In this document: positions 40,873-57,110 of the stretch, piece by piece | How positions within the stretch are numbered: the first letter of the stretch is position 1 | Layout of the letters: each line of letters opens with the position of its first letter | Origin: a virus | Direction: 5' to 3' (one strand) | Length of the DNA stretch: 64,000 nucleotides | Virus record (IMG/VR): IMGVR_UViG_3300046660_000385 | Span: 53,859 to 117,858 of that record | Made by a program: the position numbers and the translations under genes | Notes under the pieces: model-generated | Databases searched by the model: none | The model's input: the letters and a program-made list of their open reading frames with translations, nothing else | Told to the model about the DNA's origin: nothing

Positions 40873-41246
40873 GCGTTGGCCCTTGCGCGCCGGACCATGA
40901 ACCGCCCTTCGCGGGCGTTGCGGCTGGTCGAGGAGAGGCTGGCTTTGCGCAGCAGCTGGTCGACGTGGTACACGGCCCTCCTGTGGCCGCGTTCGGCCTC
41001 CTCGATGGTGCAGTAGCGCTCCATGTATTCGCGCGGGCGGTGCCGCTCGAAGATCATGGTCTCGAACAGCACCGGCGGCCCGCCGGTGAAGCTGTGGTCC
41101 AGCCCGAGGAACACGGTCGAGACGACGGCGCGGCCGACCACGGTGCGCGCGATCTGGTTGCTGGTCGTGCCCCAGGCGATCGCCCACTCCTGCAGGTCGG
41201 CGCAGGCAACCACCTGGCGGTCCTTGGTCAGAATGTAGTGCATCAT
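40869..41246 (-). CDS. conserved phage hypothetical protein
   Basis: VSTVFLGLDH...PPVLFETMIF...RY.T.EEA..GH motif familiar from phage early regions. Confidence 0.7.
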   Translation of the reverse strand: MMHYILTKDRQVVACADLQEWAIAWGTTSNQIARTVVGRAVVSTVFLGLDHSFTGGPPVLFETMIFERHRPREYMERYCTIEEAERGHRRAVYHVDQLLRKASLSSTSRNAREGRFMVRRARANA

Positions 41247-43507
41247 GCCACCTGCCCCAGCTGGATACCCTGCGAGGCCAGCCACATGCTGATGATGCGC
41301 TTGAGTTCGCTCATGGCGCCGTTGCACGCCACGTAGCGGTCGCCGACCAGCTTCTTGATCTTGCCGGTCGTGGTGTGATTCACGAAGCGTTCCATGCCGA
41401 TCATCCTGTCGACGTTGACGAAGCGCTCCAGCGACCCCTTCTCGTCGCAGTGCGCGAGCCGGATCTCGACCATCGGGAAGGTGCGTTCCAGCTCGTCCTT
41501 GTACTGCTTCTCGCGGTTGACCAGGATGCCCACCACCAGGCGCCGGGTTTTCTCGACGCGCGGCTTTTCGTCACCGTAGTTCTTCGGCGGCGCGCTGGCC
41601 GCCACCAGGTGCGGCGCCGCGAAGCCCGGTGCTGCGGCCACGTTCACGACCGGCGCCGGCAGCTTCGCCACTGCCTGCTCGACCATCGTCTGGATCATCG
41701 GGCCGAGGTGCTTGGCGACCTCCGCGCCCAGCAGGGCCATCAGCGGGGCAAAAGCGGCCTCGTACGGGTTCACGGCGGGCACCGATGCCGGAATGGCGGC
41801 AACGGGGGCGACCGGCGGCGCGGTCTCCACCACCGCGGCGGGCGCGGGCGCGGCGGCCGGCACCAGGACGCACGCCGGCGGCTTGCCTTCGAGAACCGCG
41901 TGCAGGTCGGCAAAGGCGCGTTCGAGCGGCGCGCGCAGGGTCGAGAACGACACCACTTTCAGGTGCCGGCGCTGGCGTTCCAGCGGCAGCACGCGTTGCT
42001 GCGCGAAAGCGACGTCGTCGGTGTCCAGCCCGATCAGGCTCTGGCCGTAGGGGTAGTTATGGGCCGGGAACAGCTTGTGCAGCTCCTCGGCGATCAGGAG
42101 CCACTCCTGGCGGGTCCATTCGATCTTGACGAACAGCTTGTCGGCCTTCTCGTTCGACGGCGCCGGGGCCGGGGTCGGCTCGGCCGCTGCTGCAGGTAGG
42201 GGTTCGGGCTGCGCACTGCCCGCGGCCTGCTTGACGCGCGCCACGGCCGGTTCCAGGTGTTTCAGGGTGGCGGCCACCGAGAAGAAGCGGCGCGGGCGCT
42301 CCATGCGCTGGGCCGTGTCGTTGAGCATGCTCAGCGTCAGGTCGCGGAAGCGTGCCTCGACCTGCGGATACTTCGCGTACAGCAGGCGGATCAGCGTGTC
42401 CCACTCCGCGGCCGACCAGAACACGCGCGGGCCGGACCGGAAGTCCTGCACCGGGTCCGGCGCGGGCGCCGGGGCCGGCTCCACGGCTGGCGGGGCCACG
42501 GCAGCGACGGGGGCCTGGGTTGCTTCCTCATGCTGTTTGAACTGCTCGGCGGTCCAGATCGGTTTGCCGGCCAGCGCGTCGCGCAGGCGGTTGCCGAACG
42601 AGCGGATATGGGCCTGGTTGGCCATGCGGCGCTGGCGTTCCGGCGGCAGTGCCTTGCGGATCGCAATGTTCAGGTCGGTGATGTTCAGGCCCGGCAGGAA
42701 GCCGTCCTCGAGCGCGCGCGGCCAGGTGCTGCGCAGTTCGGCGGCGATCGCCTTGTATTCGTCGGCGGTCCAGTAGATCTGGGGCCGCACGGGCGCAGGG
42801 AGGACCGGCGGCGGGGCGTCAGGCAGCTTCTCCGGGGCCGCTGCAGTCTCGGGTGTCTCGGCCAGCTGCGCGGCCTGTGGCGGCTCCTCGGGGGTTGCCT
42901 GCGGGGCGACGGCGGCATCGGTGTCGGCCGTCTCGTCCGGGGTGTCGCCCTGTTCGGGCCGGCCAAAGTAGAACGGGTCGCGGCTTTCTCGTGCCTGCTT
43001 GTAGACCTGGGCCAGCCGGTCGGTGGCGTCGGCCAGGCGCTTGAACTTGCGCTGCCGGCCCTGCTCCATCGCCGAGGCGGCCAGATTGAGTTGATGCAGC
43101 GTGACTTTCGAGAGGTCCGGGGCGTTCACCAGGTCCAGCTCCGGGCACATCGTGTGCAGGGCCAGCGCACAGAACCGCCAGTCATCCTGTCCCCACCGCA
43201 CGCGGGCAGTGCCTGCTCCTTCCTCGCCCTGCCCCTGCGCTGTCTGCTCCGTGCTCTGCGCAGGGACCGCCACCCTGTCGAACGCTTTCACCAGGTCGCG
43301 CTTGATCCGGCTGAGCTTCGGACGCACGCCGTGCCGTTCTGGCGGCAGACAGGCCTGGAGAACTGGCGTGAACTCGACGTCGGACAGGTTGATGTCGTAC
43401 GGTTGCTTGACAGAGGCGAAGCCGCGCTCCGGGTAACGCTCCATGAGATTCCACGCGAGGCAGTCCAGCTCAGTGTCAGTCCAGTTCTTTTTGGTCATGG
43501 GAAGCAT
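41243..43507 (-). CDS. 754-aa protein with five W-x3-E/D helical repeats and a C-terminal alpha/beta domain
   Basis: KNWTDTEL, VRWGQDDW, IYWTADEY, VFWSAAEW, IEWTRQEW units separated by Pro/Ala linkers. Confidence 0.75.
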   Translation of the reverse strand: MLPMTKKNWTDTELDCLAWNLMERYPERGFASVKQPYDINLSDVEFTPVLQACLPPERHGVRPKLSRIKRDLVKAFDRVAVPAQSTEQTAQGQGEEGAGTARVRWGQDDWRFCALALHTMCPELDLVNAPDLSKVTLHQLNLAASAMEQGRQRKFKRLADATDRLAQVYKQARESRDPFYFGRPEQGDTPDETADTDAAVAPQATPEEPPQAAQLAETPETAAAPEKLPDAPPPVLPAPVRPQIYWTADEYKAIAAELRSTWPRALEDGFLPGLNITDLNIAIRKALPPERQRRMANQAHIRSFGNRLRDALAGKPIWTAEQFKQHEEATQAPVAAVAPPAVEPAPAPAPDPVQDFRSGPRVFWSAAEWDTLIRLLYAKYPQVEARFRDLTLSMLNDTAQRMERPRRFFSVAATLKHLEPAVARVKQAAGSAQPEPLPAAAAEPTPAPAPSNEKADKLFVKIEWTRQEWLLIAEELHKLFPAHNYPYGQSLIGLDTDDVAFAQQRVLPLERQRRHLKVVSFSTLRAPLERAFADLHAVLEGKPPACVLVPAAAPAPAAVVETAPPVAPVAAIPASVPAVNPYEAAFAPLMALLGAEVAKHLGPMIQTMVEQAVAKLPAPVVNVAAAPGFAAPHLVAASAPPKNYGDEKPRVEKTRRLVVGILVNREKQYKDELERTFPMVEIRLAHCDEKGSLERFVNVDRMIGMERFVNHTTTGKIKKLVGDRYVACNGAMSELKRIISMWLASQGIQLGQVA

Positions 43508-43749
43508 GGTTATTTACTGTTTGGAATTCCACTGTAGCGAAAAGTGTCCTGGATTCCAACGCATTTGTTCTTTTTTTTTAAGTCGACCTATAAACCCGGT
43601 GTTGCAGATTGTAAACATCATTCACTGCACGCTCGGGGTTGATTTTGTTTTTCAAATCAAAAATTTAGCGACGGAAACGATTTTGAACAGCTGTTACATT
43701 TCGTGAGTTTTTGTAGGTTCGTTCCTACAAGGTCGTGAGACTTCCACGA

Positions 43750-44087
43750 AGGTGTGTCGTTTGCCTAAAGTTTCAGTTAACGATTCCTTAAAGGCGACTT
43801 TAATGAATCTTGCATACTGTGCATGCTTGAGAGCACCATTTGTGGATAACTACCCCCTTGGGTTTATAAGAAGGTTCAAAAGAAGGTTTATGGGGGTGTG
43901 GATAAGTCGCGTAAACTGTTGATATGTAGCAGCTTATCAACATGGCCCGGTGGGTCGTTTACCGTAAACGGTGTGTCGTTTACCCAAAACGGTGTGTCGT
44001 TTGCGCTGCCCGGTGTGTCGTTTACCCTTGAGGACCCTGCTCCGGTGTGTCGTTTACCCTGCCCGGTGGGTCGTTTACTGTGGATAA
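43750..44087. other. oriV: iteron-type plasmid replication origin
   Basis: Iterons, TGTGGATAA DnaA boxes at 43841, 43897 and 44079, IHF consensus 43912-43924, GGTT 12-mers 43861-43896; abuts rep gene. Confidence 0.85.
43948..44078 (+). repeat. six iterons CGGTG(T/G)GTCGTTT(A/G)C
   Basis: Starts 43948, 43969, 43990, 44011, 44043, 44064 (spacing 21,21,21,32,21); near-identical isolated copy at 43750. Confidence 0.92.
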
Positions 44088-44096
44088 ACTGACTGC

Positions 44097-45128
44097 TCAC
44101 GCCGCTTTTCCCTCGGCCGGCGCGTCGTTCCGGTCGCCGTTGCCGTCCCATTTCGCGCGCTCGACGTGCACCAGTTCGCCGTCCTTGCCCTGGCTGAACC
44201 AGAACCGCACCAGCACCTTGTGCTCGACCAGCTCCTGCAGGCGCTGCTTGACGATGCGTTTCTGCTCCTTGGGCGAGCAGGTCAGCTGCAGCAGCTTGGC
44301 CAGTGTGGCCACGTAGACGTCGTTCGGGTTCTTGTGGCTGCCGTAGTAGGCCTGCAGGATGCCGGCCCCGGTCGACATCTCGCTTTGCGCGCTCTCCGAC
44401 ACCAGCGTCAGCCACTCCTTGGCGAACAGCAGGATCATGTTCGGGTCCATCGGGATCTCCCACTCGAGGTCGCCCTGCGGGACGTCGTCGACCGGGGTCT
44501 TGCCGCCGGTGAAGCGCACGCCGCTGTCGACCATGCGCAGCTGCATGCCCGAGACGTCGGTGGCGGCCAGGTCCTGCTCCTCGATCGCGCGGATCTCGTC
44601 GTACATGGCGGCCAGCATTTCGACCGAGCCGACGGCGGCGCGCGCCTTTTCGTAGGCGCGCATCTTGGTCAGGCGGCGCGAGTAGATCATCAGCGACACG
44701 CCCGACAGCCGCAGGATCGAGTTGTAGATCTCGGTGTAGTAGACCTGGCGGGTCTGCCATTTGTTGAGCTTGCAGATGGTCGAGCTTTTCACCCGCACCA
44801 CCAGGCCGCCCAGCTTGTGCTCGCGCGCCAGGTGCGCCAGCGTGAGAAACACCTTCCAGTCCTGGCCGCGGATCTCCTCGCCGGTCATGGTGACGGCCGC
44901 GTCGTCGCCGCCGAGCGTGAACAGCCGCTCGTTGTGGTAGTAGCGGCGCGGGGCGCCGCCCGTCTTGGTCGAGATCAGGGCGCAGCGGGTCAGCTCGTTG
45001 GCGATCGCGCGCACCTCGTCGTGCCAGTACGGCAGCTGGACGGGCGCGAACTTCCGCAGTTCGGCCTCCATCGTCCTGGCCTTGGTCAGCTGGTCGCGCG
45101 CGCGATCCTGCGGGGTGGAATCGGTCAT
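44097..45128 (-). CDS. trfA: TrfA-family plasmid replication initiator
   Basis: VQLPYW....RAIANELTRCALI and TGEEIRGQDWKVFL.L.HLAR match the TrfA family pattern; adjacent iterons. Confidence 0.75.
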   Translation of the reverse strand: MTDSTPQDRARDQLTKARTMEAELRKFAPVQLPYWHDEVRAIANELTRCALISTKTGGAPRRYYHNERLFTLGGDDAAVTMTGEEIRGQDWKVFLTLAHLAREHKLGGLVVRVKSSTICKLNKWQTRQVYYTEIYNSILRLSGVSLMIYSRRLTKMRAYEKARAAVGSVEMLAAMYDEIRAIEEQDLAATDVSGMQLRMVDSGVRFTGGKTPVDDVPQGDLEWEIPMDPNMILLFAKEWLTLVSESAQSEMSTGAGILQAYYGSHKNPNDVYVATLAKLLQLTCSPKEQKRIVKQRLQELVEHKVLVRFWFSQGKDGELVHVERAKWDGNGDRNDAPAEGKAA

Positions 45129-45182
45129 GGTCCGTCCTGTTGTTGGATCGTGAGCCGGGCCTGGACGTGGCCCGGCGATGGC

Positions 45183-45659
45183 TTAGCTTGTCTGGCGCGG
45201 ATCTGGCCACGCGGCGGCCGGCTGCGGCATGCTGCCCGAGACCATGTTGGCCACGGCCTGGCTGGCCTCCTGCGCCGGCGACACCGGGCCAGGGTCGCGC
45301 TCGACCACCAGCACCGGCTTCTCGATCAGGAAGTCCTCCATCGGCTGGCCGATCAGCCAGTTCGGCACCCGGCCGCTGCCGGTCCAGGTGGCGCCGCTGA
45401 CGGGGTCGCGGTACTTCGGCGCGCCCTTGACCGAGCGGTCGCGCCGCTTCTCGGGCTTGCGCTCGCGCTTGGGCGGCGCCGGCGGCGCCGTATAGCCGAG
45501 TTCTTCGGCGGTCAGGTCGTAGGCCGAGATCAGCGCCTTGATGTCGCCGATCGCGGCGTTGCGGCCCTCCATCATCAGCAGGGTCGCCTTCTCCTGCAGC
45601 GCCTTGATCTGCGCCTGCAGCTCTTGATAGGCCTGGAAATTCCGGTGCAGGTCGCTCAT
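45183..45659 (-). CDS. hns: H-NS family protein (paralog 1)
   Basis: N-terminal coiled coil, PKYRDPVSGATWTGSGRVPNWL...FLI. Confidence 0.85.
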   Translation of the reverse strand: MSDLHRNFQAYQELQAQIKALQEKATLLMMEGRNAAIGDIKALISAYDLTAEELGYTAPPAPPKRERKPEKRRDRSVKGAPKYRDPVSGATWTGSGRVPNWLIGQPMEDFLIEKPVLVVERDPGPVSPAQEASQAVANMVSGSMPQPAAAWPDPRQTS

Positions 45660-46015
45660 GCCCTACCCTCGATCAGGAACTGTTCCCGATTCTTGCCCTT
45701 GATCCAGCCGGGCACGGTGCCCAGGCCGCTCCAGGTCTTGCCCGAGGCCGGATCGAGGTAGCGCGGCGTCGACGGCTTGCGGTTGTTTGGCCCGCGCGGG
45801 CAGAACAGCGCCCCTTCCACCAGTTCCTCTGGGGTCAGGCCGACGTTGCGGGCGATCTGCAGGATCTTCGCGCGCGCCTCGGTAACGACTTCGATGCGGC
45901 GCTTGCTGATGTGCTCGGCCAGCAGTTGTTGCAGGGATTCCAGGTAGGGCAGTTCCAGCTTGTCGATCAGCTGGAGGACATCGGCCAGTGCGGCCGCGTG
46001 GGGGGTGCGGGTCAT
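45656..46015 (-). CDS. hns: H-NS family protein (paralog 2)
   Basis: PRYLDPASGKTWSGLGTVPGWI...FLI. Confidence 0.8.
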   Translation of the reverse strand: MTRTPHAAALADVLQLIDKLELPYLESLQQLLAEHISKRRIEVVTEARAKILQIARNVGLTPEELVEGALFCPRGPNNRKPSTPRYLDPASGKTWSGLGTVPGWIKGKNREQFLIEGRA

Positions 46016-46284
46016 GTTTTCGTAGGTCGTTGGTTGGTGAAAGTGGTGGGCACGGTGCCCAGGTGGAAATACAGGGCCGCCGCCATCGCGGCCTGGCGGC
46101 GCGTCAGGCCGGGCGGGTCCTCTTCGTCCCCGCCGAAGCAGAAGCAGCGCTGTTTCTGGTGGCCGACCGAGCCGACGGCGGCGCGCAGGCCGCACTCGTA
46201 ATGGGTCGGCTGGGCGTAGTTCGGGGCGCGCCGGTCGTCGCCCATGACGGGTTCGTCGCACCAGACGCAGGTCGGGGCGGTCAT
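46012..46284 (-). CDS. Cys/His-rich hypothetical protein
   Basis: CVWC...HYEC...CFC; ATGA overlaps. Confidence 0.6.
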   Translation of the reverse strand: MTAPTCVWCDEPVMGDDRRAPNYAQPTHYECGLRAAVGSVGHQKQRCFCFGGDEEDPPGLTRRQAAMAAALYFHLGTVPTTFTNQRPTKT

Positions 46285-46460
46285 GGACAGGACGGCCCCG
46301 GCGTTGCCGGGCGCGGGTTCTTCTCGCGCCAGGCAGCGCCTGAGTAAAAGGCGTTCATCACATCGGACTTGATGCACTCGCGGTCGTCGTCGTCATAGGC
46401 GCTCGCGCAGGCCTCGGCGGCGTCGATCAGGGCGTTGGTGTCGTCGTCGGTGTCGTTCAT
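46281..46460 (-). CDS. small acidic protein (59 aa)
   Basis: SD AAGGAG; MNDTDDDTNALIDAAEACASAYDDDDREC...; below ORF-track cutoff. Confidence 0.6.
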   Translation of the reverse strand: MNDTDDDTNALIDAAEACASAYDDDDRECIKSDVMNAFYSGAAWREKNPRPATPGPSCP

Positions 46461-46461
46461 G

Positions 46462-46782
46462 TCACTCCTTCTCGGAAAACAGGTCGGGGTTGTTGCGCCA
46501 GGCGATCATCTGGTTGGCCTGCAGCAGGGTGTCGGCGCGCACCGCGCGCCAGGCGTCGGCGGCGTCGCGCAGCCGTTCAAAGTCGTACTCGTCGGCCCCC
46601 ACGATGATCGAGGCCAGGTAGGCGTTGGCCAGCGCCGCCGCCTTGTTTGCCAGCTCGGCGCAATCGTGGGTCGACCAGGAACAGTCGTCGGGCGGGCCGC
46701 CGCGCAGCGCGTTGACGCTGTCCTCGAGGATCTGGCCCATCTCGATGATGCTGCGCTGCAGGCGTTCGATCTCGTCGTTCAT
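46462..46782 (-). CDS. hypothetical protein (106 aa)
   Basis: ATGA overlap, GC3-rich codons. Confidence 0.65.
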   Translation of the reverse strand: MNDEIERLQRSIIEMGQILEDSVNALRGGPPDDCSWSTHDCAELANKAAALANAYLASIIVGADEYDFERLRDAADAWRAVRADTLLQANQMIAWRNNPDLFSEKE

Positions 46783-47012
46783 ATCCAGCTCTCGACAATG
46801 ACGGGGTCATCCCCAGGGCTGCGTGCGATCGGCACCAGGTCGCGCGGCAGCTTGGCGCGCACCTCCTCCAGGGTCGGCGCGAACACGGCGTCGGACGTGG
46901 CAACGGTCGTGCCGCCGGCCAGCACCTCGTGCCGGCGCGCGACGAAACCGCCAGGATGGTCGCGCGGGTGGTCGTATACGGTCCAGACCGACAGCAGTGC
47001 AACGCGGCTCAT
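46779..47012 (-). CDS. conserved hypothetical protein (77 aa)
   Basis: WTVYDHP.D.P..FVARR...DDPVIVESW. Confidence 0.7.
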   Translation of the reverse strand: MSRVALLSVWTVYDHPRDHPGGFVARRHEVLAGGTTVATSDAVFAPTLEEVRAKLPRDLVPIARSPGDDPVIVESWI

Positions 47013-47188
47013 GTGGTGGCCCTTCGCACGATGCGGGTGATGCGGGCGCAGGCCATGCCGGCGCACAGCGCGCCGCCATATGTCACCACCGGCGCGATCC
47101 AGCCGTGCCAGCCCCAGGCCGAGGTCGAGAGCGTCGAGCCGGCCAGGATCACCACCAGCAGCAGTGTGGTTTCGTTGACTGGTTTCAT
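47009..47188 (-). CDS. small two-TM membrane protein (59 aa)
   Basis: MKPVNETTLLLVVILAG...WIAPVVTYGGALCAGMAC; fills gap with stop/start overlap. Confidence 0.55.
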   Translation of the reverse strand: MKPVNETTLLLVVILAGSTLSTSAWGWHGWIAPVVTYGGALCAGMACARITRIVRRATT

Positions 47189-47190
47189 GT

Positions 47191-47688
47191 TCAGTAGTCG
47201 TCCTCGGTCAGGAAAATCGGCCCGCCGCTCAGGTTGAAGGTGACGGACATCTTGCCGTCCAGCTCGCCTGCAAGGTCGCCGACAAAGGCGATGCGGTCGC
47301 CCGGCTCGGCGGCAAGGACAGCGTTGATGACTTTCTCGCGCAGCGGCGTCTTGCCGATCGACAGGCCGCGGACCACCATGCGGCCCTTGTCGGCCAGGCG
47401 GTCGTCCATGCAGGCCGGCAGGCGCGCCAGGGCGTCGATCGCGGCGCGCCCGGCCAGCGTCAGCGACACGCTGCCCAGCTTCTGCCAGCCTTCATTGTCG
47501 ACCTTGCCGCCGGCCCAGCAGCACAGCACCCGGCGGGTGTGCTCGCCGCGCGAGACCGTGGTCTCGAACACGTTCATGTTGACCTGCACGTCCTCGTCCA
47601 CGCCGGTGGCCCCGCGCAGCTGCTTGACCAGGTCGGGGTGGAACTGCGCGCCCAGGATCATGCGCGAGACAATGGTTTCATCGTTCAT
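47191..47688 (-). CDS. hypothetical protein
   Basis: SD GAGGA; GC3-rich. Confidence 0.7.
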   Translation of the reverse strand: MNDETIVSRMILGAQFHPDLVKQLRGATGVDEDVQVNMNVFETTVSRGEHTRRVLCCWAGGKVDNEGWQKLGSVSLTLAGRAAIDALARLPACMDDRLADKGRMVVRGLSIGKTPLREKVINAVLAAEPGDRIAFVGDLAGELDGKMSVTFNLSGGPIFLTEDDY

Positions 47689-47696
47689 GTCTGTCC

Positions 47697-48014
47697 TCAC
47701 TGTAGAGGGGTGTCGGAGTTCTGCTGGTCGAACTGGGCCTTGACCTGCTCGGCCAGCTCGCCCTGCATCTCGACGAAGCCGCCTTTCACGCCCAGGCCGT
47801 CGGTGAAGGCCTGCAGGACCATCATCGTGAACTGGTCCTTGTTCGCACCATTGTCGACCTCGTAGTCAACGATGCTGCGCGCAAAGTAGCCGAACATGAT
47901 GATGGCCAGCTTCGGCGCAATGTCGTGACGCACCATGGCGGCGTGGACCGCGTCCAGGAACTTCTTCGAGGCCATCGCGGTGTCGTCGGTGCTGCGTTCT
48001 TTCTTCTTGGTCAT
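47697..48014 (-). CDS. hypothetical protein (105 aa)
   Basis: ATGA overlap. Confidence 0.65.
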   Translation of the reverse strand: MTKKKERSTDDTAMASKKFLDAVHAAMVRHDIAPKLAIIMFGYFARSIVDYEVDNGANKDQFTMMVLQAFTDGLGVKGGFVEMQGELAEQVKAQFDQQNSDTPLQ

Positions 48015-48436
48015 TGGCGCCACTTTCCTTGTTTGGCAATACGGTAGGGAGGGATGCGCCACAGCGCGCAGATGAGGAGCGCGACCAGCGACGCCGCGGC
48101 GAAGCCCCAGCGCTCGGTCAGCGCGTAGTTGACCAGCGAGCTGGCGTTCCAGATGCCGACCACCCACTGGCCGTACCACCACACCAGCGGGTGCCCGACC
48201 AGCCCTCTGGTGCGGATCGGCGGGAGCGGCGTGAACGGCTCGCCCATCAGGCGGTGGATCTCGCCGCGCACGGCGTCGGCCTGGAACAGCAGGCGCTTGC
48301 CGCGTTTGTTCTCCAGCAGCTGCCAGAGCACGAACCGGCCCGGCTTGTAGATCCGGTCCAGCTCGTCCATCAGCACGGCCATGACGCCGTGCAGGTAAGC
48401 CAGCCGGTGCTCGCGGTCGAGTCGGTCGTCGTTCAT
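48011..48436 (-). CDS. hypothetical membrane protein
   Basis: SD GGAGG; C-terminal hydrophobic segments. Confidence 0.6.
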   Translation of the reverse strand: MNDDRLDREHRLAYLHGVMAVLMDELDRIYKPGRFVLWQLLENKRGKRLLFQADAVRGEIHRLMGEPFTPLPPIRTRGLVGHPLVWWYGQWVVGIWNASSLVNYALTERWGFAAASLVALLICALWRIPPYRIAKQGKWRQ

Positions 48437-48582
48437 GCGCGCCTCCGGGCCAGGTCCTCGCCCAGCGCCTCGACCACCAGCTCCTCGAGCGAGCAGCTGC
48501 GGATGCGCGCCCTGCAGGCCAGTGCGCAGATGGTTGGCCACGGTAGGCGCACCGGCATGTCGATGTCGGGTTCGGGAATCAT
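48433..48582 (-). CDS. 49-aa ribbon-helix-helix-like protein
   Basis: SD AGGAGG; MPVRLP....AL..RA.....SLEELVVEAL fits an Arc/CopG-type pattern. Confidence 0.45.
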   Translation of the reverse strand: MIPEPDIDMPVRLPWPTICALACRARIRSCSLEELVVEALGEDLARRRA

Positions 48583-48905
48583 CAGTGCCTCCTGACCGGC
48601 AACACGATCGTCTGCGGGGTCTCGTCATCGCCGGCCTTCATGGTGCGCACCAGCTCGGCCGGCAGGCTCATCACCTCGATGAACTGCAGCGTCATCGCCC
48701 GGCGCGCGTCGTCGAGCTTGATGGCCGGGTTTTCCCTCATCACCACGGCAGCCACGCCGCGGCAGGCGACGGCGGCAGCCAACACCATGTTCAGCCAGGT
48801 GAGGTCGGGATTGGCGCGCCCGGCCGCCGTCATCGCGTCGGTCAGGGTAGCGGCCAGCTGCATCATCGCCTCGGCATGCGCCGGGTCCATTTGGTCGTCA
48901 TTCAT
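48582..48905 (-). CDS. hypothetical protein (107 aa)
   Basis: ATGA overlap. Confidence 0.65.
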   Translation of the reverse strand: MNDDQMDPAHAEAMMQLAATLTDAMTAAGRANPDLTWLNMVLAAAVACRGVAAVVMRENPAIKLDDARRAMTLQFIEVMSLPAELVRTMKAGDDETPQTIVLPVRRH

Positions 48906-49273
48906 TTGAGGGTCCCCAGGCTGGCGATGCCAACGAAGATGTCCGGCGGGCGCGGGATCTCGAGGTCCAGCGGACGCCACATATGTAAACAGTTCGGGTG
49001 GTTGGAAATCCAGGATGAGCGCGGGACGTGCAGCTGCATCACCGTGTCCTCATGATCCCAGAACAATTCTTTCACGGCGCACATTTCGTCCCACAGCGGA
49101 CAGCGATCCTGACGCGAGACGGACACATGCTCCCAGCCGAGCTTGTCGGAACAGATCACGCGCAGGGTCTGGTTGCGCGCCAGCTTGACCATGAACAGGC
49201 CGTTGTTGCCGGCTTCCGGCGTGGTGCCGTACATGCCGCTGGTAACGCGAAAACGTTCTGGGGCTTTCATCAT
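48902..49273 (-). CDS. conserved phage protein (WEHVSVS family)
   Basis: GWEHVSVS...RCP.WDEMC.VKELFW...HPNCLH.WRP. Confidence 0.75.
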   Translation of the reverse strand: MMKAPERFRVTSGMYGTTPEAGNNGLFMVKLARNQTLRVICSDKLGWEHVSVSRQDRCPLWDEMCAVKELFWDHEDTVMQLHVPRSSWISNHPNCLHMWRPLDLEIPRPPDIFVGIASLGTLK

Positions 49274-49425
49274 GGGTCGGGTAATTGTCGGTAAGGAACA
49301 GCCTACGATATTAGGGTAGACCTGTCCCAAGTGGCAACTTTTTTTGCCAAGTGTAAGGGGTTCGCCACCGGCGTGGAGCACGCCTGTTCCGCATCTTCCG
49401 CAGTGTGAGAATGTGTGAGTTTTGG

Positions 49426-50331
49426 TCAGCTTTTCAGCAGCAGGGCCAGGTTGTCCTCGACCAGCCGGTGCAGGGCGTCGTAGTTGATATTGCCGGACAC
49501 GCGAGCGCCGTCGCCGGTCAGCACCAGGCGCACGCCGCCGCCCAGCTCGATGTCCTTGCTGGGCTTCTTCGCGCGCGGGTTGACCTGGTCCTCGATCCAG
49601 CGCGGCACCCCGCCCTGCGTCAGCAATTCCTTGGCGAGCAGGCACAGCGCATCGAACACGGCCAGTTCGTGCTGCGGGCAGTAGGGCTTGAGCTTCTTGG
49701 CCAGGTTGTAGCCGACCAGACCCGGGTGGTCGTCGAGCAGCTGGTGGACGCTTTGCGGCAGTGCGCCGAAGGTGTCCAGGTGCTGGATGATAGTACGGTC
49801 GATGTTGAGCAGGCGCGCCAGGTCGATGTTGCTCTTGACGGCGCCCGCCTCGCGCAGCATCTGCATGTGCTTGTACAGTTCCCAGTCGCCGAGGTTCTTG
49901 CGCGTGGTGTTTTCCGACGTCAGCGCGCGCGCCGCTTCGATGTCCGACAGGTTTCGCACGAAGGCCGGGATCTCGGGCCGCCCCAGGCGCCGGAACGCTT
50001 CGACCCGGTGGTGGCCGGCGACCAGCTCGAACCGGGGTGTGATTTTATCACACCCCCCCTCGGTCCCCGGCGGCAGCGGGCGCACGATGACCGGGTCGTG
50101 CAGGGTGTCCTCGCGCACGCTCTCGACCAGGACCTCCATGTAGGCTTCGTCGACCTTCCCCCGGCGCTGGTAGCGCGAAGGCGCGATCGCGTCCAGCGGC
50201 AGCAGTTGCGGCGGCGCGACTTCGTTGCCCATGCTGCCGAAGATCGTGGAGGCGACGTCGCTGCGGCCGGCGGCTGGCGGCGCGCGCCGGCTGGCCGCTT
50301 CGGCCAGCTGCTTTTCGAGCTTACTCGACAT
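49426..50331 (-). CDS. parB: ParB/Spo0J-family partition protein
   Basis: YQRR, PVIVRP, ELVAGHHR..A, EN..R..L, HTH; directly downstream of parA. Confidence 0.9.
   Translation of the reverse strand: MSSKLEKQLAEAASRRAPPAAGRSDVASTIFGSMGNEVAPPQLLPLDAIAPSRYQRRGKVDEAYMEVLVESVREDTLHDPVIVRPLPPGTEGGCDKITPRFELVAGHHRVEAFRRLGRPEIPAFVRNLSDIEAARALTSENTTRKNLGDWELYKHMQMLREAGAVKSNIDLARLLNIDRTIIQHLDTFGALPQSVHQLLDDHPGLVGYNLAKKLKPYCPQHELAVFDALCLLAKELLTQGGVPRWIEDQVNPRAKKPSKDIELGGGVRLVLTGDGARVSGNINYDALHRLVEDNLALLLKS
50034..50056. repeat. palindrome copy 2, candidate parS (inside parB)
   Basis: GGGGTGTGAT-TTT-ATCACACCCC. Confidence 0.75.
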
Positions 50332-51115
50332 CGGCCAGTTCCTTCGCCTGCAGGCCCAGCTTGGCCATCACTTCGCGCGACAGGTCGAACACGGCGCGGG
50401 TGACGGTATGGTCCTTGTCGAACTGCAGGATGGTCTGGCCGAGGATCTGGCCCTTCTGCACATCGGTGCTGGCCGGGATCGTCGCGGCGAATACATCGTA
50501 GTATTCGCGCACGCTGTTGGCGATGATCCGGCACACGGTCTTGCGGCCGTCGTGCCTGGTCAGCACCGCGCCGCCCAGCTGCAGGCGCGGGTTGACGATG
50601 CGCGCCTCGTTGATGAAGTTCAGGGTGTCGTCGCTGCCGGTGAGCGACAGCTTCGAGCCGGATTCGACCGGCACGATCACCATGTCGGCCGCGGCCAGGG
50701 CGTTCGCGGTCAGGCTGCCCAGCGACGGCGGGCAGTCCAGGATGATGATGTCGTAGACCTCGGCCACGCTCCTGAGCTTTTCCGCCACCAGGCGGGTCGA
50801 GGTGAACGGGTTGTTCTGCAGGCTCCGTTCGAGGTTGGCCAGCTTGATGGTCGAGCCGAGCACATGCACGCCGGGGATGCGCGTTTCCGTGATGATGGCC
50901 TCGGCCATCGTGACGTCGCCGGCCAGCAGCTTCTCGATCGGCGCCGGCGGCGCCGCCTCGAACGAATAGGCCAGCTTGGTGGCGTTGGCCTGCGGGTCCA
51001 GGTCGACCAGCAGCACGCTCTGGCCTTCGCGGCTCATCGCATCGGCCATGTTGACACAGCAGAACGTCTTGCAGACGCCGCCCTTGTGGTTCACTACCGC
51101 GAGTATCTTTGCCAT
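50321..51115 (-). CDS. parA: ParA/Soj-family ATPase
   Basis: NHKGGVCKT deviant Walker A, VDLDPQAN, DCPPSLG. Confidence 0.93.
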   Translation of the reverse strand: MAKILAVVNHKGGVCKTFCCVNMADAMSREGQSVLLVDLDPQANATKLAYSFEAAPPAPIEKLLAGDVTMAEAIITETRIPGVHVLGSTIKLANLERSLQNNPFTSTRLVAEKLRSVAEVYDIIILDCPPSLGSLTANALAAADMVIVPVESGSKLSLTGSDDTLNFINEARIVNPRLQLGGAVLTRHDGRKTVCRIIANSVREYYDVFAATIPASTDVQKGQILGQTILQFDKDHTVTRAVFDLSREVMAKLGLQAKELADVE

Positions 51116-51184
51116 GTGGACGCCTCTTCTCTTTGGAAGAGGAAATTATCGCACAGGGTGGCGGGAATTACCAGTTTGAAACAA

Positions 51185-51207
51185 GGGGTGTGATACGATC
51201 ACACCCC
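51185..51207. repeat. palindrome copy 3, candidate parS / parAB operator
   Basis: GGGGTGTGAT-ACG-ATCACACCCC upstream of parA. Confidence 0.75.
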
Positions 51208-51227
51208 CCGTTTGCGGACCGGCTCGC

Positions 51228-51872
51228 TCAGGCGGCGCTGGACAGGTACATCGCGGTCAGTGCATCGCGCAGGGCGTCGAGGTCGCCGTTGATCTGCAGC
51301 GGTTCCTGGCCGATTCCGCGCAGGATCTGCACGGTCTTGCCGTTGGCGCGGCGGGCCATGACGATCACCTTGTGGTAGGCGCGCAGCGATTCGAGCTTGT
51401 TCATCGAGTCGGCCGCGTCCAGCAGCAGCAGCTTGAACTCCTTGCCGAACTCGTTCTCGATGGTGCGGTGGTGGATCTGCGGCAGCGCGATCACGGCCAC
51501 GCGGCGGCGGAACGCCAGCGGCTGCTTGTCGGCCGGGGCCGGCGCGCGCTGCATCGGGGCCGGGACCAGCTGCACCGGCGCGGGCACCTCGACCGGGGCC
51601 GCTGCCGGAACCGCCAGCAATGGCGGCACCGCGGGCGGGGCTTCCTCCCCGCGCACGCCGGCCAGCCAGCCGGGATAGCCGCCCAGGCGCCACAGGTCCC
51701 ACTTCGCAATCAGGTTGCCCATCGTGCTGTCGGCATCGGTGATGCCCTGCTGGGTCATGAAGTCCTTGATGTCCTTGCGCAGCGCCAGGCCATAGTCGGA
51801 CCACTCGGCCTCCTCCTGGCTGCGGTGCACCTGGCCGTCCTCGGACAGGTATGCGGTGATCGGCTTTGCCAA
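51228..51872 (-). CDS. hypothetical protein with C-terminal alpha/beta domain
   Basis: SD GAAGGAG, TTG start; C-terminus resembles that of 41243..43507. Confidence 0.7.
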   Translation of the reverse strand: MAKPITAYLSEDGQVHRSQEEAEWSDYGLALRKDIKDFMTQQGITDADSTMGNLIAKWDLWRLGGYPGWLAGVRGEEAPPAVPPLLAVPAAAPVEVPAPVQLVPAPMQRAPAPADKQPLAFRRRVAVIALPQIHHRTIENEFGKEFKLLLLDAADSMNKLESLRAYHKVIVMARRANGKTVQILRGIGQEPLQINGDLDALRDALTAMYLSSAA

Positions 51873-51998
51873 AGTCTCTCCTTCATGCGGGGCGATGGTC
51901 GCGCCAGCCCTGCCCGCTGCGGGCATGTCGCGTTTTCACTGGAGCAAAAACACTAACTCGAAGGACCATAGTATTGCAAATATGGAACTTTGGGCAGG

Positions 51999-52021
51999 GG
52001 GGTGTGATAGTATCACACCCC
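51999..52021. repeat. palindrome copy 4, candidate parS
   Basis: GGGGTGTGAT-AGT-ATCACACCCC. Confidence 0.75.
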
Positions 52022-52525
52022 TTTTTCTGCGCGGTGGGCAGCGCGGATGGCCCGCAGGTGCGCCATCCACTCGGCGCGGTCGCCCCCGACCTGGTACTCG
52101 AGGACCTGCGACCCCACGCGGACGCGGCGTACGCGGGCGGCCAGGCGTTCGTCGCTGGCTTCGCGCGCCGCGATCCGCTCGGCCCGGCGGACCTCGGCGG
52201 CGGCCATGCGCGCGGCCAGCTGCTCGGCCTGCCGGGCGGCATCGGCAGCGCGGCGGGCGCGGCGTTCCGCCTCGGCCTCGTACTGCCTGGCGATGCGGAC
52301 GGCCTTGCGTTCGGCCGCCAGCTGGTCGCGCTTGGTGGCAGCGGCGGCCTTCATGCGCGCCACCAGTTCGGCGACCTCGGCCGACGTCGCGCCGCTGGCC
52401 CGGCTGGCGGCGATCAGGGCCTGTGCCGTGCCCTTCGGCGGCTTGCGGCGGCGCGGGCGGTTCGCCTTCGCTTCCCGGTAGGCCGCCAGTTCCGCCGCCA
52501 GCTTCGGACTGATCCGGGCTGTCAT
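52013..52525 (-). CDS. Ala/Arg-rich coiled-coil protein
   Basis: TGATG overlap with upstream gene; fills gap. Confidence 0.55.
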   Translation of the reverse strand: MTARISPKLAAELAAYREAKANRPRRRKPPKGTAQALIAASRASGATSAEVAELVARMKAAAATKRDQLAAERKAVRIARQYEAEAERRARRAADAARQAEQLAARMAAAEVRRAERIAAREASDERLAARVRRVRVGSQVLEYQVGGDRAEWMAHLRAIRAAHRAEKGV

Positions 52526-52773
52526 CAGGCCGGCAGCGGTGCGTACAGCAGCGCGCGCAGGTCGTTGATCGACAGGCCGGTGGCGTCGTGCGCCTTGATG
52601 AGGAACGCCGGCGAGACCGGGTTCACGCCGTGGCGCATCTTGCTGATGACCGGCGGCGCGATCTCCAGCAGGCGGCACATGGCGGCGTCGTTCTTGCAGG
52701 CCAGGACCTCGAGCAGCTTGTCGAGCAGCTCGTTCGGGTTCTGGGTGTGCGGGTCGGGTTTCTTGCGTGGCAT
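52525..52773 (-). CDS. small XRE-like HTH protein
   Basis: SD AAGGAGG; NPN.LLD.L...KNDAA..R.LEIAPPVISK.RH. Confidence 0.75.
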   Translation of the reverse strand: MPRKKPDPHTQNPNELLDKLLEVLACKNDAAMCRLLEIAPPVISKMRHGVNPVSPAFLIKAHDATGLSINDLRALLYAPLPA

Positions 52774-52789
52774 GGTGCCTCCTTGGTGG

Positions 52790-53182
52790 TTATGTGAACT
52801 GCACGCCCAGCTCCTGAGCGGCATGGACTTCGACGGCCTGCATGAACTGGCTGAACTCCTCGACCGAGAGGTCGGTCGAGGACATCGCCATCGTGGCGCC
52901 GCCCGGCAGGTCGACCACGCCGATGAACTGGCGTTTGAATTCTTCGTGCCACACGGCCTTGCTGTAGCGGCGCCCGCCGACCCAGGCCTGCTCGGCGATC
53001 GCGCCCAGCACGGCCGGGCCGAAGTAGCGGCGGTTCTGTTCGAGCGAGCGCTTGCTGCGATAAAACGTGACCGTCACGGCAAGGAACCGTCCCTCGGCGG
53101 CGAACTGCTGCCAGTTCGCCGTCAGGAACGCGACCAGGCTGGCCAGGTGCATCGCCTCGCGCAGCACGAACAGGCGCTGCAT
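52790..53182 (-). CDS. ninB: NinB/YbcN-family recombination protein
   Basis: KRSLEQNRRY, W...FK, SSTDLSVEEFSQFM..VE..AA..LGV. Confidence 0.75.
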   Translation of the reverse strand: MQRLFVLREAMHLASLVAFLTANWQQFAAEGRFLAVTVTFYRSKRSLEQNRRYFGPAVLGAIAEQAWVGGRRYSKAVWHEEFKRQFIGVVDLPGGATMAMSSTDLSVEEFSQFMQAVEVHAAQELGVQFT

Positions 53183-53586
53183 CAGAGGACCGGCTCCACG
53201 CCCTCCGCGGCCAGATCCTCGCTCGAGCGCTTGATCGCCTGGCTCAGGCGGTCGACGAAGATCGGCACCGTGTGCTCCGGGTTGCTGAGCGCGCGCGCCA
53301 TGACCCAGGCCAGCGCGTCGGCCAGGTAGCCCAGACTGGCGCCGATCCGCAGCACGTACGCGATCACGTCCGGCTCCAGCTCGCTGGTGTCGACCTTCGA
53401 CATGTCCAGCGTCTCCATCGGCATGGCCTCGAACATCGCCTCGAAGAAGCAGGCAAAGCAGGGCACGCCGTTGCGGTCGCGCTCGATCACGGTCAGGCCC
53501 TCGGCGGGCGCCTTGTCGTCGTGGTCGTGGGCGACGAAGAAGCCGGTGTGGAAACCGGGCATGCTCGGGATCAGGTCAGTGGACAT
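53182..53586 (-). CDS. acidic CxxC protein (paralog A)
   Basis: GVPCFACFFEAMFEA. Confidence 0.7.
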   Translation of the reverse strand: MSTDLIPSMPGFHTGFFVAHDHDDKAPAEGLTVIERDRNGVPCFACFFEAMFEAMPMETLDMSKVDTSELEPDVIAYVLRIGASLGYLADALAWVMARALSNPEHTVPIFVDRLSQAIKRSSEDLAAEGVEPVL

Positions 53587-53926
53587 GGGCACCTTCCGGG
53601 GCGTTGAGCAGCTGCACCGTGTTGTCGATGCGTTCGTGGAACGCTTCCAGCATTTCCTCGGCGCCTTCGCCGGCGATCTGCACCGCCAGCCGGGCGATGG
53701 CATCGGCCACCAGGGTGAAGGTCCCGCCGACGCGGCGCGCGTACTCGACCGCTTCCGGGTCGACGTCCTCGACGTCTTCCGGGTCCAGCACGACCGTCAC
53801 CAGGTCGTCCTCGGACAGGGCGTCGAACACCGCGCCGAAGTAGCAGCCGAAGCACGGCAGGCCGCCGTCCTCGGGGTGGAACACGGTGTCGTATTCCGGG
53901 CCTTGCGCGTCGTCATGCTCACTCAT
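53576..53926 (-). CDS. acidic CxxC protein (paralog B)
   Basis: SD AAGGAGG; GLPCFGCYFGAVFDA. Confidence 0.7.
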   Translation of the reverse strand: MSEHDDAQGPEYDTVFHPEDGGLPCFGCYFGAVFDALSEDDLVTVVLDPEDVEDVDPEAVEYARRVGGTFTLVADAIARLAVQIAGEGAEEMLEAFHERIDNTVQLLNAPEGAHVH

Positions 53927-54545
53927 AGGGTGGTCCCTCCTTGGGCAGTTTCAGGGTGGCGCGCAGGCTCTGGTACTCGCCGCGCTTGGGGAAGCTGATG
54001 CCGCGCTCCCAGCGCGAGATCTGGGCGCCGCTGACGCCGACCTCGCGGCCCAGCTGGTCCGGCGTCATGCCCTCGTTCAGGCGCGCCTCGGCGATGTCCT
54101 GGCCTTCCAGGAACACGTCGGGGCAGTCGGTCCCGCGCAGCGCCTTGAACGTGACCACGCGGGTACGGCGCTTCTTGACCGGGGCCGGGGGCGGGGCCGT
54201 GACCAGCTCGACCGGCTCCTCGAGCGGACCCAGGTGCTGCTGGACCCATTCCAGGTGCTGCTCGGGCGGCGGCAGGTTCGGCACCGGCGGCGCCGGCGGC
54301 GACAGGCGCACCTCCTGCGGCACGCCGGCGTCGACCGCGGCCAGCTTCATGTAGAACTCGTTGAAGAAACGCAGCTTGCGGCCCGGCGGCGCCGACTCGC
54401 CCAGCACCAGGGCGACCGCGCGTGCGACCTCCTCCATGAAGTGGCCGGTGGCGATGTCGTACATGAACGGGTCCGGGTTGGCGACCGACAGGGCCGCCAG
54501 GCGTTCGGACAGGAACTTCTCGGTGGGGTTCAGATCGCGGCTCAT
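53919..54545 (-). CDS. protein with C-terminal XRE HTH
   Basis: IAEARLNEGMTPDQLGREVGVSGAQISRWERG...P. Confidence 0.8.
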   Translation of the reverse strand: MSRDLNPTEKFLSERLAALSVANPDPFMYDIATGHFMEEVARAVALVLGESAPPGRKLRFFNEFYMKLAAVDAGVPQEVRLSPPAPPVPNLPPPEQHLEWVQQHLGPLEEPVELVTAPPPAPVKKRRTRVVTFKALRGTDCPDVFLEGQDIAEARLNEGMTPDQLGREVGVSGAQISRWERGISFPKRGEYQSLRATLKLPKEGPPYE

Positions 54546-54554
54546 ACTTGCCTC

Positions 54555-54992
54555 TCAGAACGGGACATCGTCCATGCTTGCCGGCTGCGCCGGGCGCGCG
54601 GCCTGGGCCGGGCGGCTGTTCTGCTGGCCCTGGTAGCCGCCGCCGCTGGCGCCGTCGGGGCGTCCGCCCAGCATCTGCATGGTCTCGGCCACGATGTCGG
54701 TGGCGTACTTCTCGACGCCGTCCTTGTCGGTGTACTTGCGGGTCTGCAGGCGGCCCTCGACGTAGACCGAGCTGCCCTTCTTGAGGTACTGGCCGACGAT
54801 CTCGGCCAGCTTGCCGAAGAAGGAGATACGGTGCCATTCGGTCAGCTCGGTCTGCTCGCCGGTGTTCGGGTCCTTCTTCTTGAACGAGGTGGCCACGGCG
54901 ATGTTGGCGATCGGGTCGCCGCTGGGCATGTAGCGCATTTCTGGGTCGCGGCCGAGGTTGCCGACGATGATGACTTTATTGACAGATGCCAT
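54555..54992 (-). CDS. ssb: single-stranded DNA-binding protein
   Basis: [37 protein letters not shown] tail. Confidence 0.97.
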
Positions 54993-55007
54993 GTTGATTC
55001 CTTTCGT

Positions 55008-55328
55008 TCAGGGATGGGTGGGGGTACGGCGGTGCTTCATGCCCAGCGTCAGGCCGCGCTCGCGCAGCGCGTTCTCGATTTCGTACAGCGAACGGCCACC
55101 CAGGTTCGGTATGTACAGCAGCTCACGGCTGGTGTAGCAGACCAGTTCCTCGACGGTCGTGATGCCCTCGCTGGCCAGGCAGTTGTAGGCCCGGGTACTC
55201 AGTTCCAGCTCGGCGAGCGTGGATTCTTTTGTCGCCGGGGCCGGGCCGTGCAGGCGGATGTAGTTGGCCAGGATCTCGAGGGCCTGCTGGGCCTGGTCGA
55301 CGTTGGAGACGGAGAGGGTCAGGTTCAT
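55008..55328 (-). CDS. stand-alone RNA polymerase alpha C-terminal-domain protein
   Basis: LELSTRAYNCL..EGI.TV.EL...ELL.IPNLG.RSL.EI...L..RGL.LGM. Confidence 0.88.
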   Translation of the reverse strand: MNLTLSVSNVDQAQQALEILANYIRLHGPAPATKESTLAELELSTRAYNCLASEGITTVEELVCYTSRELLYIPNLGGRSLYEIENALRERGLTLGMKHRRTPTHP

Positions 55329-57032: not shown

Positions 57033-57067
57033 CGGGCGGCTCCTGTTTGTCGGTGGGAAACAGGAAC

Positions 57068-57110
57068 CAGTCTATTAAAGTTTCGCTTTAATTTACAAGG
57101 GAAAGTTAGA
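57068..57110 (-). promoter_or_regulatory. PL-like promoter with operator(s)
   Basis: TTGTAA-18-TAGACT on minus strand; perfect palindrome ATTAAAG-TTTCG-CTTTAAT 57074-57092 in the spacer; weaker site 19 bp further. Confidence 0.65.

Follow-up and report, generated by a model that had tools for sequence, protein, structure and literature searches.

The window we analysed is a stretch of 64,000 nucleotides (bases 53859-117858) of a 117,858-bp contig, the IMG/VR virus record IMGVR_UViG_3300046660_000385. It carries a gene for a TrfA-family replication initiator with an iteron-containing origin, a parAB partition locus, a cI/cro-type immunity region, a helicase-primase pair and phage virion genes (Table 1). 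We consider it likely that these genes belong to a circular temperate phage of about 98.6 kb that is kept in lysogeny as a low-copy plasmid. An earlier sequence-only reading of positions 43750-51115, a range that spans exactly from the first iteron to the start of parA, had proposed a podovirus-like phage-plasmid with two replication systems. Genes were called by codon-position GC (GC3 frame plot), because spurious open reading frames (ORFs) are plentiful at the 67% GC of this contig. They lie on the plus strand over positions 1-36191 and 58033-64000, and on the minus strand over approximately 37.5-57.95 kb.

Table 1. Features of the window and of the adjoining part of the contig. Positions are those of the window unless marked as contig positions; variant B and the relatives L004 and L005 are described in the text.
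Feature	Position	Strand	Description
variant palindrome GGCGTGAT-N3-ATCACGCC	37481-37499		near-copy of the parS candidates, possible distal ParB site; also in L004
p754	41243-43507	-	754-amino-acid (aa) protein on the far side of the origin
AT-rich stretch	~43500-43940		presumed DNA unwinding element (DUE)
oriV	43508-44096	-	putative origin: 7 iterons, three TGTGGATAA boxes, palindrome, AT-rich presumed DUE
isolated iteron	43751-43764		seventh copy, ~200 bp from the others
TGTGGATAA boxes	43841-43849, 43897-43905, 44079-44087		read from the sequence
palindrome TGTTGATA..TATCAACA	~43919-43944		within oriV
clustered iterons	43949-44078		six copies
trfA	44097-45128	-	TrfA-family replication initiator, 343 aa; PF07042, 45.4 bits; AlphaFold pLDDT 80.5
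H-NS-like gene	45183-45659	-	directly upstream of trfA; PF00816
second H-NS-like ORF	45656 to ~46000	-	PF00816
~ten tightly packed small genes	46012-49220	-	function unassigned; DUF7694 protein (E 9e-24) at the parB-proximal end; from GC3 frame plot
promoter-like site	49308-49337	-	9/12 consensus match, weak evidence
parB	49426-50331	-	Spo0J/Noc-type, 301 aa; ParB_N E 3.5e-12; TIGR00180 65.5 bits (cut-off 58.45)
candidate parS/operator palindrome GGTGTGAT-N3-ATCACACC	50036-50054		inside parB; same position in variant B, L004 and L005
parA	50321-51115	-	short Walker-type partition ATPase, 264 aa; AAA_31 E 1.2e-42; phrog_164 ParA-like E 8e-57
candidate parS/operator palindrome GGTGTGAT-N3-ATCACACC	51187-51205		upstream of parA
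candidate parS/operator palindrome GGTGTGAT-N3-ATCACACC	52001-52019		upstream of a 232-aa gene (51228-51926); equivalents in variant B, L004 and L005
leftward recombination genes	52790-56461	-	NinB/Orf 52790-53182; helix-turn-helix (HTH) protein 53919-54545; single-stranded DNA-binding protein (SSB) 54555-54992; exonuclease within 55325-56461
operator-like site AAAGTTTCGCTT	57077-57088		AT-rich gap left of cI, PL-like position
intrinsic terminator	57230-57256	-	directly after cI; 11-bp stem and T run; strong
cI-like repressor	57278-57952	-	224 aa; HTH followed by an Ala-Gly linker; S24-like domain with DSM motif at the C terminus
two operator-like sites	57988-57999, 58007-58018	+	overlap the sigma-70-like promoter facing cro; region 57988-58025
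sigma-70-like promoter TTGATA-16-TAGAAT	57998-58025	+	10/12 match; faces cro
Cro/YdaS-type HTH fused to DUF4406	58033-58605	+	PF15943 E 4e-16, PF14549 E 1.7e-9, PF14359 E 5e-26
Ref-like RecA-dependent nuclease	58602-59006	+	PF16786 E 1e-24
SF2 (ResIII/Helicase_C) DNA helicase	59767-61251	+	phrog_16 E 5e-77
Toprim-domain primase-like protein	61251-62141	+	Toprim_3 31.5 bits (cut-off 27.2); phrog_2249 DNA primase E 4.6e-33; start codon overlaps helicase stop
TerL	contig 35543-37159		phrog_38 E 2e-45; outside the window
small serine recombinase	contig 37429-38046		205 aa, Resolvase and HTH_7 domains; outside the window
SU10-type portal	contig 44790-48035		1081 aa; outside the window

The putative origin, oriV, is situated directly downstream of trfA. 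The iteron GGTGKGTCGTTTRC is present there in seven copies between positions 43751 and 44078, all in a single orientation, where 0.03 copies are expected, and none of 100 shuffled sequences reached seven. Four of the iterons are spaced by 21 bp, followed by a 32-bp step, two more at 21 bp, and then the isolated copy. The box TGTGGATAA, which we take to be the DnaA-box consensus, occurs three times. The 200-bp windows starting at 43493-43743 have a GC content of 0.39-0.41, and this AT-rich trough is the longest and deepest on the whole contig. In the alignment with the relative L005 all seven iterons and the three boxes stand out as conserved islands, and much of the AT-rich spacer has diverged. 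The contig contains only this one iteron array and this one AT-rich trough, no second origin was found, and among the genes scanned neither Pfam nor the PHROGs recognised a second initiator.

The initiator itself passes the PF07042 cut-off of 22 bits (E 7e-12). By tblastn it matches annotated trfA genes of 138 plasmid records, and in 123 of these records the match spans 80% or more of the query. The top match has 39.4% identity (E 4e-58). At 25-39% identity to plasmid TrfAs, the protein is a distant member of PF07042. All 15 homologues that were found carry PF07042. Searches of the PDB by sequence or profile returned nothing meaningful. An AlphaFold model built on the 15 homologues reached a predicted local distance difference test score (pLDDT) of 80.5 and a predicted template modelling (TM) score of 0.76. 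Its top Foldseek match is to domains 2-3 of RctB (E 2.6e-8, TM 0.51/0.60), and further matches are to RepE54, a plasmid Rep-DUE complex and the pi protein of R6K, with probabilities of 0.94-1.00 across the top matches. Iteron initiators are built on a tandem winged-helix fold, and the model shares the fold of RctB, RepE and pi.

The partition locus comprises the parts of a type I ParABS system: a Walker-type ParA, a ParB with an N-terminal ParB domain and an HTH, and a repeated palindrome. ParB also resembles Noc/Spo0J in the PDB (E 2e-10). The palindrome is found in five exact copies and one near copy on the contig, at equivalent positions in all variants, and in L005 both copies read GGTGTTAT..ATAACACC, a symmetric change. 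We take these palindromes to be candidate parS/operator sites that ParB would bind. TrfA, oriV and ParABS together would make up the set that a low-copy theta plasmid needs. Between variants of the element ParA and ParB are only 64-69% identical, and TrfA is 88-97% identical with the same iterons; the replicon and the partition module may have evolved at very different rates, or the latter may have been swapped.

The circularity of the contig, one of the checks proposed with the sequence-only reading, was found in the sequence itself. Bases 1-127 of the contig are identical to bases 98641-98767, and 127 is a common maximum k-mer of de Bruijn assemblers. Beyond this exact repeat, contig positions 1-20002 and 98641-117848 are a diverged direct copy of each other (71-88% nucleotide identity by segment in the self-comparison). 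The record thus appears to be a 98,640-bp circle, closed by the exact 127-mer without host flanks, whose assembly then continued into the early region of a second strain. Accordingly, window positions 44910-64000 appear to represent one version of the early region (variant A), and contig 1-20 kb the circle's own version (variant B). Variant B and the locus L004 gave the same identity values for ParA, ParB, the 232-aa gene and NinB. The circle with a second-strain branch is supported by branches and depths among public contigs from two runs. In run X1, possibly the source sample, a shared unitig (43783-45041, depth 31.4) splits at about 45012 into a branch identical to the window (depth 15.2) and a diverged branch (depth 24.6), and the joint column depth of 39.9 matches the sum of both; in run X2, from a separate study, p754-oriV-trfA and an early region of similar divergence are joined on one 9.2-kb contig. 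We also considered that the 20-kb direct repeat might be a true tandem of two prophages, and rejected this idea because of the exact 127-nucleotide repeat at its head and the additive depths of the two branches. IMG/VR labels the topology of the record as linear. Among the gene families scanned over one full period of the circle there were no host-type genes.

The region around the cI-like gene points to control of lysogeny. Its HTH matches HTH_3 (E 1.2e-13), and residues 18-221 match the phrog_4 repressors (E 5.8e-23). LexA- and lambda-cI-type repressors combine an HTH with an S24 peptidase domain that has a Ser/Lys dyad and an Ala-Gly cleavage site; by these motif definitions Ala79-Gly80, the DSM motif and a nearby Lys are visible in the protein, the register of the Lys being uncertain. 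The window has three copies of the motif AAAGTNTNNCTT, where 0.07 are expected: two lie over the promoter that faces cro, and the third in the AT-rich gap left of cI. In variant B both promoter copies are identical, and a perfect palindrome occupies the third position. AAAGTnTnnCTT is a candidate for the operator sequence of cI, and the region has a lambda-like PL-cI-PR layout. The first gene of the lytic operon is unusual in that its Cro-type HTH is fused to DUF4406, which PHROG annotation describes as nucleoside 2-deoxyribosyltransferase-like. Farther along the rightward operon, homologues of the helicase are present in 1731 phage records, homologues of the Toprim protein carry the annotation DNA primase, and MW202426.1 and MW202545.1 have both genes side by side, suggesting that the pair is a common phage module. 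Both the cI/cro switch, which lies outside the range of the sequence-only reading, and the helicase-primase pair had been named there, as had the initiator, the iteron origin and parAB, and all of them are present. In variant B the helicase and primase genes are followed by a VWA protein and then by a DUF1064 Holliday-junction-resolvase-like protein.

The replicon is not confined to this record. It recurs in L004 (G001), which comes from a separate data set and has a 97% identical TrfA and a 100% identical portal, and in L005 (G002), where TrfA is 88% identical. A profile scan added TrfA relatives, 25-50% identical, on 13 further viral contigs. The gene order NinB-ParA-ParB-(DUF7694)-H-NS-TrfA-iterons-p754 is kept in six of these 13 loci (TrfA 39-50%), and an array of at least four copies of an exact 11-mer lies downstream of trfA in seven, the 21-bp spacing being kept in most. 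The iteron sequence differs from lineage to lineage and co-varies with the divergence of TrfA; this conservation and co-variation over deep divergence suggest that the replicon is in use. A match to the SU10 portal is present in five of the 13 records, above the cut-off in four. Four viral records with TrfA relatives (L019, L027, L028 and L030; G005, G013, G014 and G016) are rated 100% complete at 61-116 kb and have no SU10 portal match; two of them have direct terminal repeats, and L019 and L028 have iteron arrays of seven and six copies. TrfA replicons may therefore occur in other phage types as well.

Outside the viral records, five long metagenome contigs carry TrfA, and their 20-kb flanks share only TrfA with the element, plus ParA/ParB in L035. 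Together with a Herbaspirillum plasmid, these contigs suggest that plasmids as well as this phage lineage carry TrfAs of this subfamily. TrfA had no match among 50,697 phage records. The portal reached 41.5% identity over half of its length among deposited phages, and TerL 22-28% among the 25 records listed; plasmid records gave a single portal match, over 6% of the portal length. A TrfA scan of genome contigs found only a Massilia contig (42% identity), from a genome without the portal. Among 401 genomes of the same order the portal had four matches at E <= 1e-10, the best with 37% identity, and profile A1 found no TrfA relative in these four genomes, although such a blank shows little.

One alternative explanation is that TrfA and oriV are the phage's own replication origin, used after infection or induction as lambda uses O and ori-lambda, without a stably partitioned plasmid, and that ParAB serves a transient carrier state or another role. 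Only a single origin and initiator can be recognised, so something must serve lytic replication; trfA is located at the end of a leftward gene array that starts beside cI; and a circular assembly is equally expected from permuted virion DNA. However, a system of ParA, ParB and palindrome that stays syntenic with trfA in six of the 13 additional loci would be difficult to account for if the element were not maintained as a plasmid, the presence of cI and Cro without an integrase implies a non-integrative lysogeny, and the closest cellular TrfA (39%) is encoded on a plasmid with F-type conjugation genes in the order parA-parB-x-trfA. We consider it rather unlikely that this explanation holds on its own terms. 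It is compatible with plasmid maintenance insofar as oriV may serve both states.

The sequence-only reading had noted that no integrase lies in the window, and this observation extends to the whole 117,858-bp record. PF00589, PF07508, PF00665 and PF16684 each had 0 matches there; that is, tyrosine integrase, large serine recombinase, DDE transposase (rve) and protelomerase (ResT/TelK) are absent from the record. An integrase outside the window and flanking host genes had been named among the findings that would speak against a phage-plasmid; the former was not found in the whole record, and the latter were not seen in the gene families scanned over one full period. PF00589 is also absent from G001 and G002 and from 11 of the 13 further records, including all five with SU10 portal matches; the two records with a tyrosine integrase (G005 and G015) have no portal, and PF07508 was found in none of the 10 relatives tested. 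Nevertheless, the element could be a prophage that integrates by means of an unrecognised integrase or the small serine recombinase, with the plasmid genes as cargo or remnant. The recombinase is present in the three closest relatives too, and IMG/VR assigns four related records (G006-G009) to its provirus class. However, the enzyme has the resolvase/invertase architecture, unlike large serine integrases, and the record closes on itself without host DNA. The provirus records L022 and L023 end about 3 kb past trfA, inside or just after p754, and we suspect that plasmid-like genes were trimmed there as host rather than that these ends are a true att boundary. The co-variation of iterons and TrfA likewise argues for a replicon in use, and we regard an integrating prophage as improbable.

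The virion genes bear on whether the element is still a phage. Its portal and adaptor match Pfam families based on phage SU10 (PF23899, E 2.6e-30, and PF24175, E 4e-22), and the window itself encodes the SU10 adaptor, a head-closure protein (Hc3), virion proteins and an SLT-domain protein. Because of the SU10-type portal and adaptor the virion is probably podovirus-like. The phage is tail-less-looking, the scans showed no sheath, tube or full tape-measure families, and the podovirus-like character claimed by the sequence-only reading fits these observations without being proven by them. Neither Pfam nor PHROGs recognised a major capsid protein, a lysis cassette did not come to light, and the element is known from metagenomic sequence alone. 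These points would fit a plasmid that has captured a defective or domesticated prophage and no longer makes virions. Against such a capture, the plasmid-type genes occupy only about 8 kb and are embedded in the early-left arm of the phage, between the recombination genes and p754. Pfam scans of the called genes turned up no conjugation or mobilisation genes, and the long ORFs, including one of 7229 aa, are intact. In addition, the portal is 100% identical in a second record of another data set, and CheckV rates the 117,858-bp record as 100% complete as a virus. We give a captured prophage very little credence.

The reading we prefer, a temperate phage kept as a low-copy plasmid, is supported by the coexistence of virion and packaging genes, plasmid replication and partition genes, and lysogeny control on a self-closing circle without integrase, transposase or protelomerase. 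A complete plasmid origin with DnaA boxes and iterons, a partition system with candidate parS sites and a small resolvase, together with the lack of an integrase, are the reason for assuming a low-copy plasmid lifestyle. Several observations weigh against it. The circle is not proof of a plasmid prophage, because permuted or terminally redundant virion DNA assembles alike, and the contig is a chimeric assembly path through two strains. All seven listed runs that contain the element come from rhizosphere or soil metagenomes, and no RNA run is among them. Completeness of the relatives is 22-85%, which makes the absence of integrases among them weak evidence, and the provirus labels mentioned above point the other way. 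The PF07042 alignment of TrfA is confined to profile positions 37-163 of 282, less than half the profile length, and no NCBIfam family matched the protein at E <= 0.001. The S24 match of cI (E 0.027) is under the Pfam threshold. The best PHROG match of the small serine recombinase is 'DNA invertase', which makes a role in dimer resolution a guess; no convincing inverted repeats that would mark an invertible segment flank this gene.

If the plasmid reading is correct, cI in the lysogen would repress the divergent rightward promoter, and with it cro, the Ref nuclease, helicase, primase and the genes beyond, and it would probably also repress the leftward promoter in front of exonuclease, SSB and NinB. 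TrfA monomers would bind the iterons and host DnaA the adjoining boxes, opening the AT-rich region for theta replication by host DnaB, DnaG and Pol III. Handcuffing that involves the array and the isolated seventh iteron may keep the copy number in check. ParB on the palindromes, together with ParA, would segregate the copies and probably autoregulate the par promoters, and the 205-aa serine recombinase may resolve dimers. Upon induction, possibly through RecA-stimulated self-cleavage of cI, the phage helicase, primase and recombination genes would take over DNA synthesis. As no second origin is visible, this lytic synthesis would take place at the same oriV or by recombination-dependent replication.

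The two replication systems that the sequence-only reading had assumed are thus borne out in one part only: the helicase-primase pair is present and, being on the Cro side, plausibly lytic, whereas a single iteron array, AT-rich trough and initiator were recognised. A single origin shared by the two states, or lytic replication that depends on recombination, is no less likely than two systems. The scans revealed no DNA polymerase family. Tentatively, and with clear doubt about the whole of it, one may picture the element as a member of an undescribed, family-level lineage of phage-plasmids from soil and rhizosphere, probably of Oxalobacteraceae/Burkholderiales, in which a single TrfA/oriV serves both states, with theta replication by host DnaB/DnaG under cI and with the phage helicase and primase after derepression on the Cro side, which would set it apart from P1 with its two separate replicons, and in which modules of the early region (ParAB and an HTH regulator) are swapped around the conserved replicon.

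Compared with known replicons, the origin most resembles that of RK2. RK2 iterons are laid out as 5+3+1, and here too an array is accompanied by an isolated iteron. As in RK2/RP4 (IncP-1), the initiator is a PF07042 protein, and direct iterons about two helical turns apart are combined with DnaA-type boxes and an AT-rich DUE, the elements that the available text of PMC4980987 gives for RK2 oriV. However, identity to the plasmid TrfAs listed from Pseudomonas, Alcaligenes and Burkholderia is only 25-27%, and trfA is situated in a phage early arm, upstream of the origin and on its strand. There is no KorA/KorB/IncC regulon and there are no Tra genes: ParB had no KorB domain at E <= 0.01, and Pfam scans of the called genes showed no KorB or conjugation family. 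The element is a phage and no IncP-1 plasmid. Among annotated TrfAs, the closest (39.4%, E 4e-58) belongs to the 89-kb plasmid NZ_CP103873.1 of Herbaspirillum huttiense (Oxalobacteraceae, Burkholderiales). This plasmid shares the local order parA-parB-small gene-trfA, followed by a recombinase, but it has F-type conjugation genes and no portal match, and the stretch downstream of its trfA showed no iteron array of exact repeats.

Among phages, P1 offers the nearest parallel in lifestyle. This temperate phage persists in the form of a low-copy plasmid. Its initiator binds iterons, and it has ParA/ParB/parS, a site-specific recombinase that acts on dimers, and DarB, a large antirestriction protein. 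P1 is a myovirus, its RepA is a Rep_3-type initiator that acts at oriR, and a separate lytic replicon uses oriL/RepL. The element shares with P1 an initiator that belongs with iterons, ParA/ParB and a recombinase, and its giant ORF matches a DarB-like PHROG. Unlike P1, it has a TrfA-type initiator and SU10-like virion genes, and no second replicon was found; no sequence relationship to P1 was detected, TrfA being without a match in the phage records. Escherichia phage SU10 is lytic. The portal and adaptor resemble those of this C3-type podovirus at the profile level only, and unlike SU10 the element has about 98.6 kb, lysogeny and plasmid modules, and a C-terminal extension on its 1081-aa portal.

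Phage-plasmids are mostly known from enterobacteria, Vibrio, Bacillus, mycobacteria and a few others, with replicons of the P1, N15 and SSU5 types. The available text of PMC7969092 backs the P1 features in part. It gives a working definition in which structural and packaging genes of a phage occur together with replication and partition genes of a plasmid and an integrase is not required, and by that definition the element falls with the phage-plasmids of Pfeifer et al. (P1, N15, SSU5, AB, pMT1, cp32, the F116 community and others). The main texts of PMC7969092 and of the tyPPing preprint make no mention of TrfA, nor do six supplementary files of PMC10879196. PMC12627491, in its available part, remarks that phage-plasmids may be among the soil 'plasmids' that carry phage genes, and neither the accessible text of this paper nor that of PMC12142739 links phage-plasmids to TrfA. 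Our searches on phage-plasmids and TrfA, which reached the sources in part, found no TrfA-type phage-plasmid. The phage-plasmid lifestyle is already known, and it is most likely this combination of parts that is unreported; the suggestion of a possibly undescribed group is consistent with both the sequence and the literature searches.

If confirmed, the element would place a replicon of the plasmid TrfA/iteron family, with its nearest relatives on Burkholderiales plasmids, within a phage, and it would add a new virion type, SU10-like and probably podoviral, to the phage-plasmid lifestyle. At least seven viral records combine TrfA with an SU10-type portal match, which together with relatives from rhizosphere and soil would indicate a lineage rather than a one-off. 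The element illustrates how plasmids and phages in soil exchange their maintenance modules, and the compact oriV-trfA-parAB cassette is a possible vector backbone for Oxalobacteraceae.

Several genes around the replicon deserve mention. The two tandem H-NS-like genes (PF00816, E 6.9e-9 and 2.5e-7) adjoin trfA in relatives too, and may provide a plasmid-style 'stealth' or silencing function or regulate trfA/oriV. The small genes next to them possibly form one operon with the H-NS genes and trfA, and the promoter-like site sits where the genes from parB towards trfA leave their only non-coding gap (~49220-49425), next to parB. In variant B a protein with a HicB-like antitoxin domain (L001:1754-2719, minus strand) is encoded between the H-NS gene and parB, and no HicB match was found among the variant A genes scanned. 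On the other side of the origin, p754 has no family in Pfam, PHROG or NCBIfam, and its best atlas score of 0.78 is below the lead threshold of 0.9. Its homologues lie beside iterons in eight of the 13 additional loci as well as in L004 and L005, and it may be part of the maintenance or replication module. In the recombination arm, the HTH protein is 33-42% identical between variants, as against 95-98% for SSB and 82-85% for NinB, and appears to be a hypervariable regulator within an otherwise conserved arm.

The window contains no tRNAs or Rfam families. Over a fifth of the genome is taken up by a single ORF of 7229 aa (14502-36191, plus strand), which encodes a polyvalent DarB-like protein with InPase, DNA methyltransferase, DUF6884, LPD1, Strawberry-notch-type helicase (AAA_34 and Helicase_C_4) and LPD39 domains. 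Among the head genes, a 91-aa protein (L003:12615-12890, plus strand; contig 48615-48890) matches the N-terminal domain of dATP/dGTP diphosphohydrolase (PF18909, E 1e-34). Two adjacent paralogues of 783 and 745 aa (6552-8903 and 8914-11151, plus strand) belong to phrog_10969, a family without assigned function (E 6e-82 and 2e-70). A 1108-aa protein with an SLT domain follows them, and the two may act in ejection or be internal proteins of the virion.

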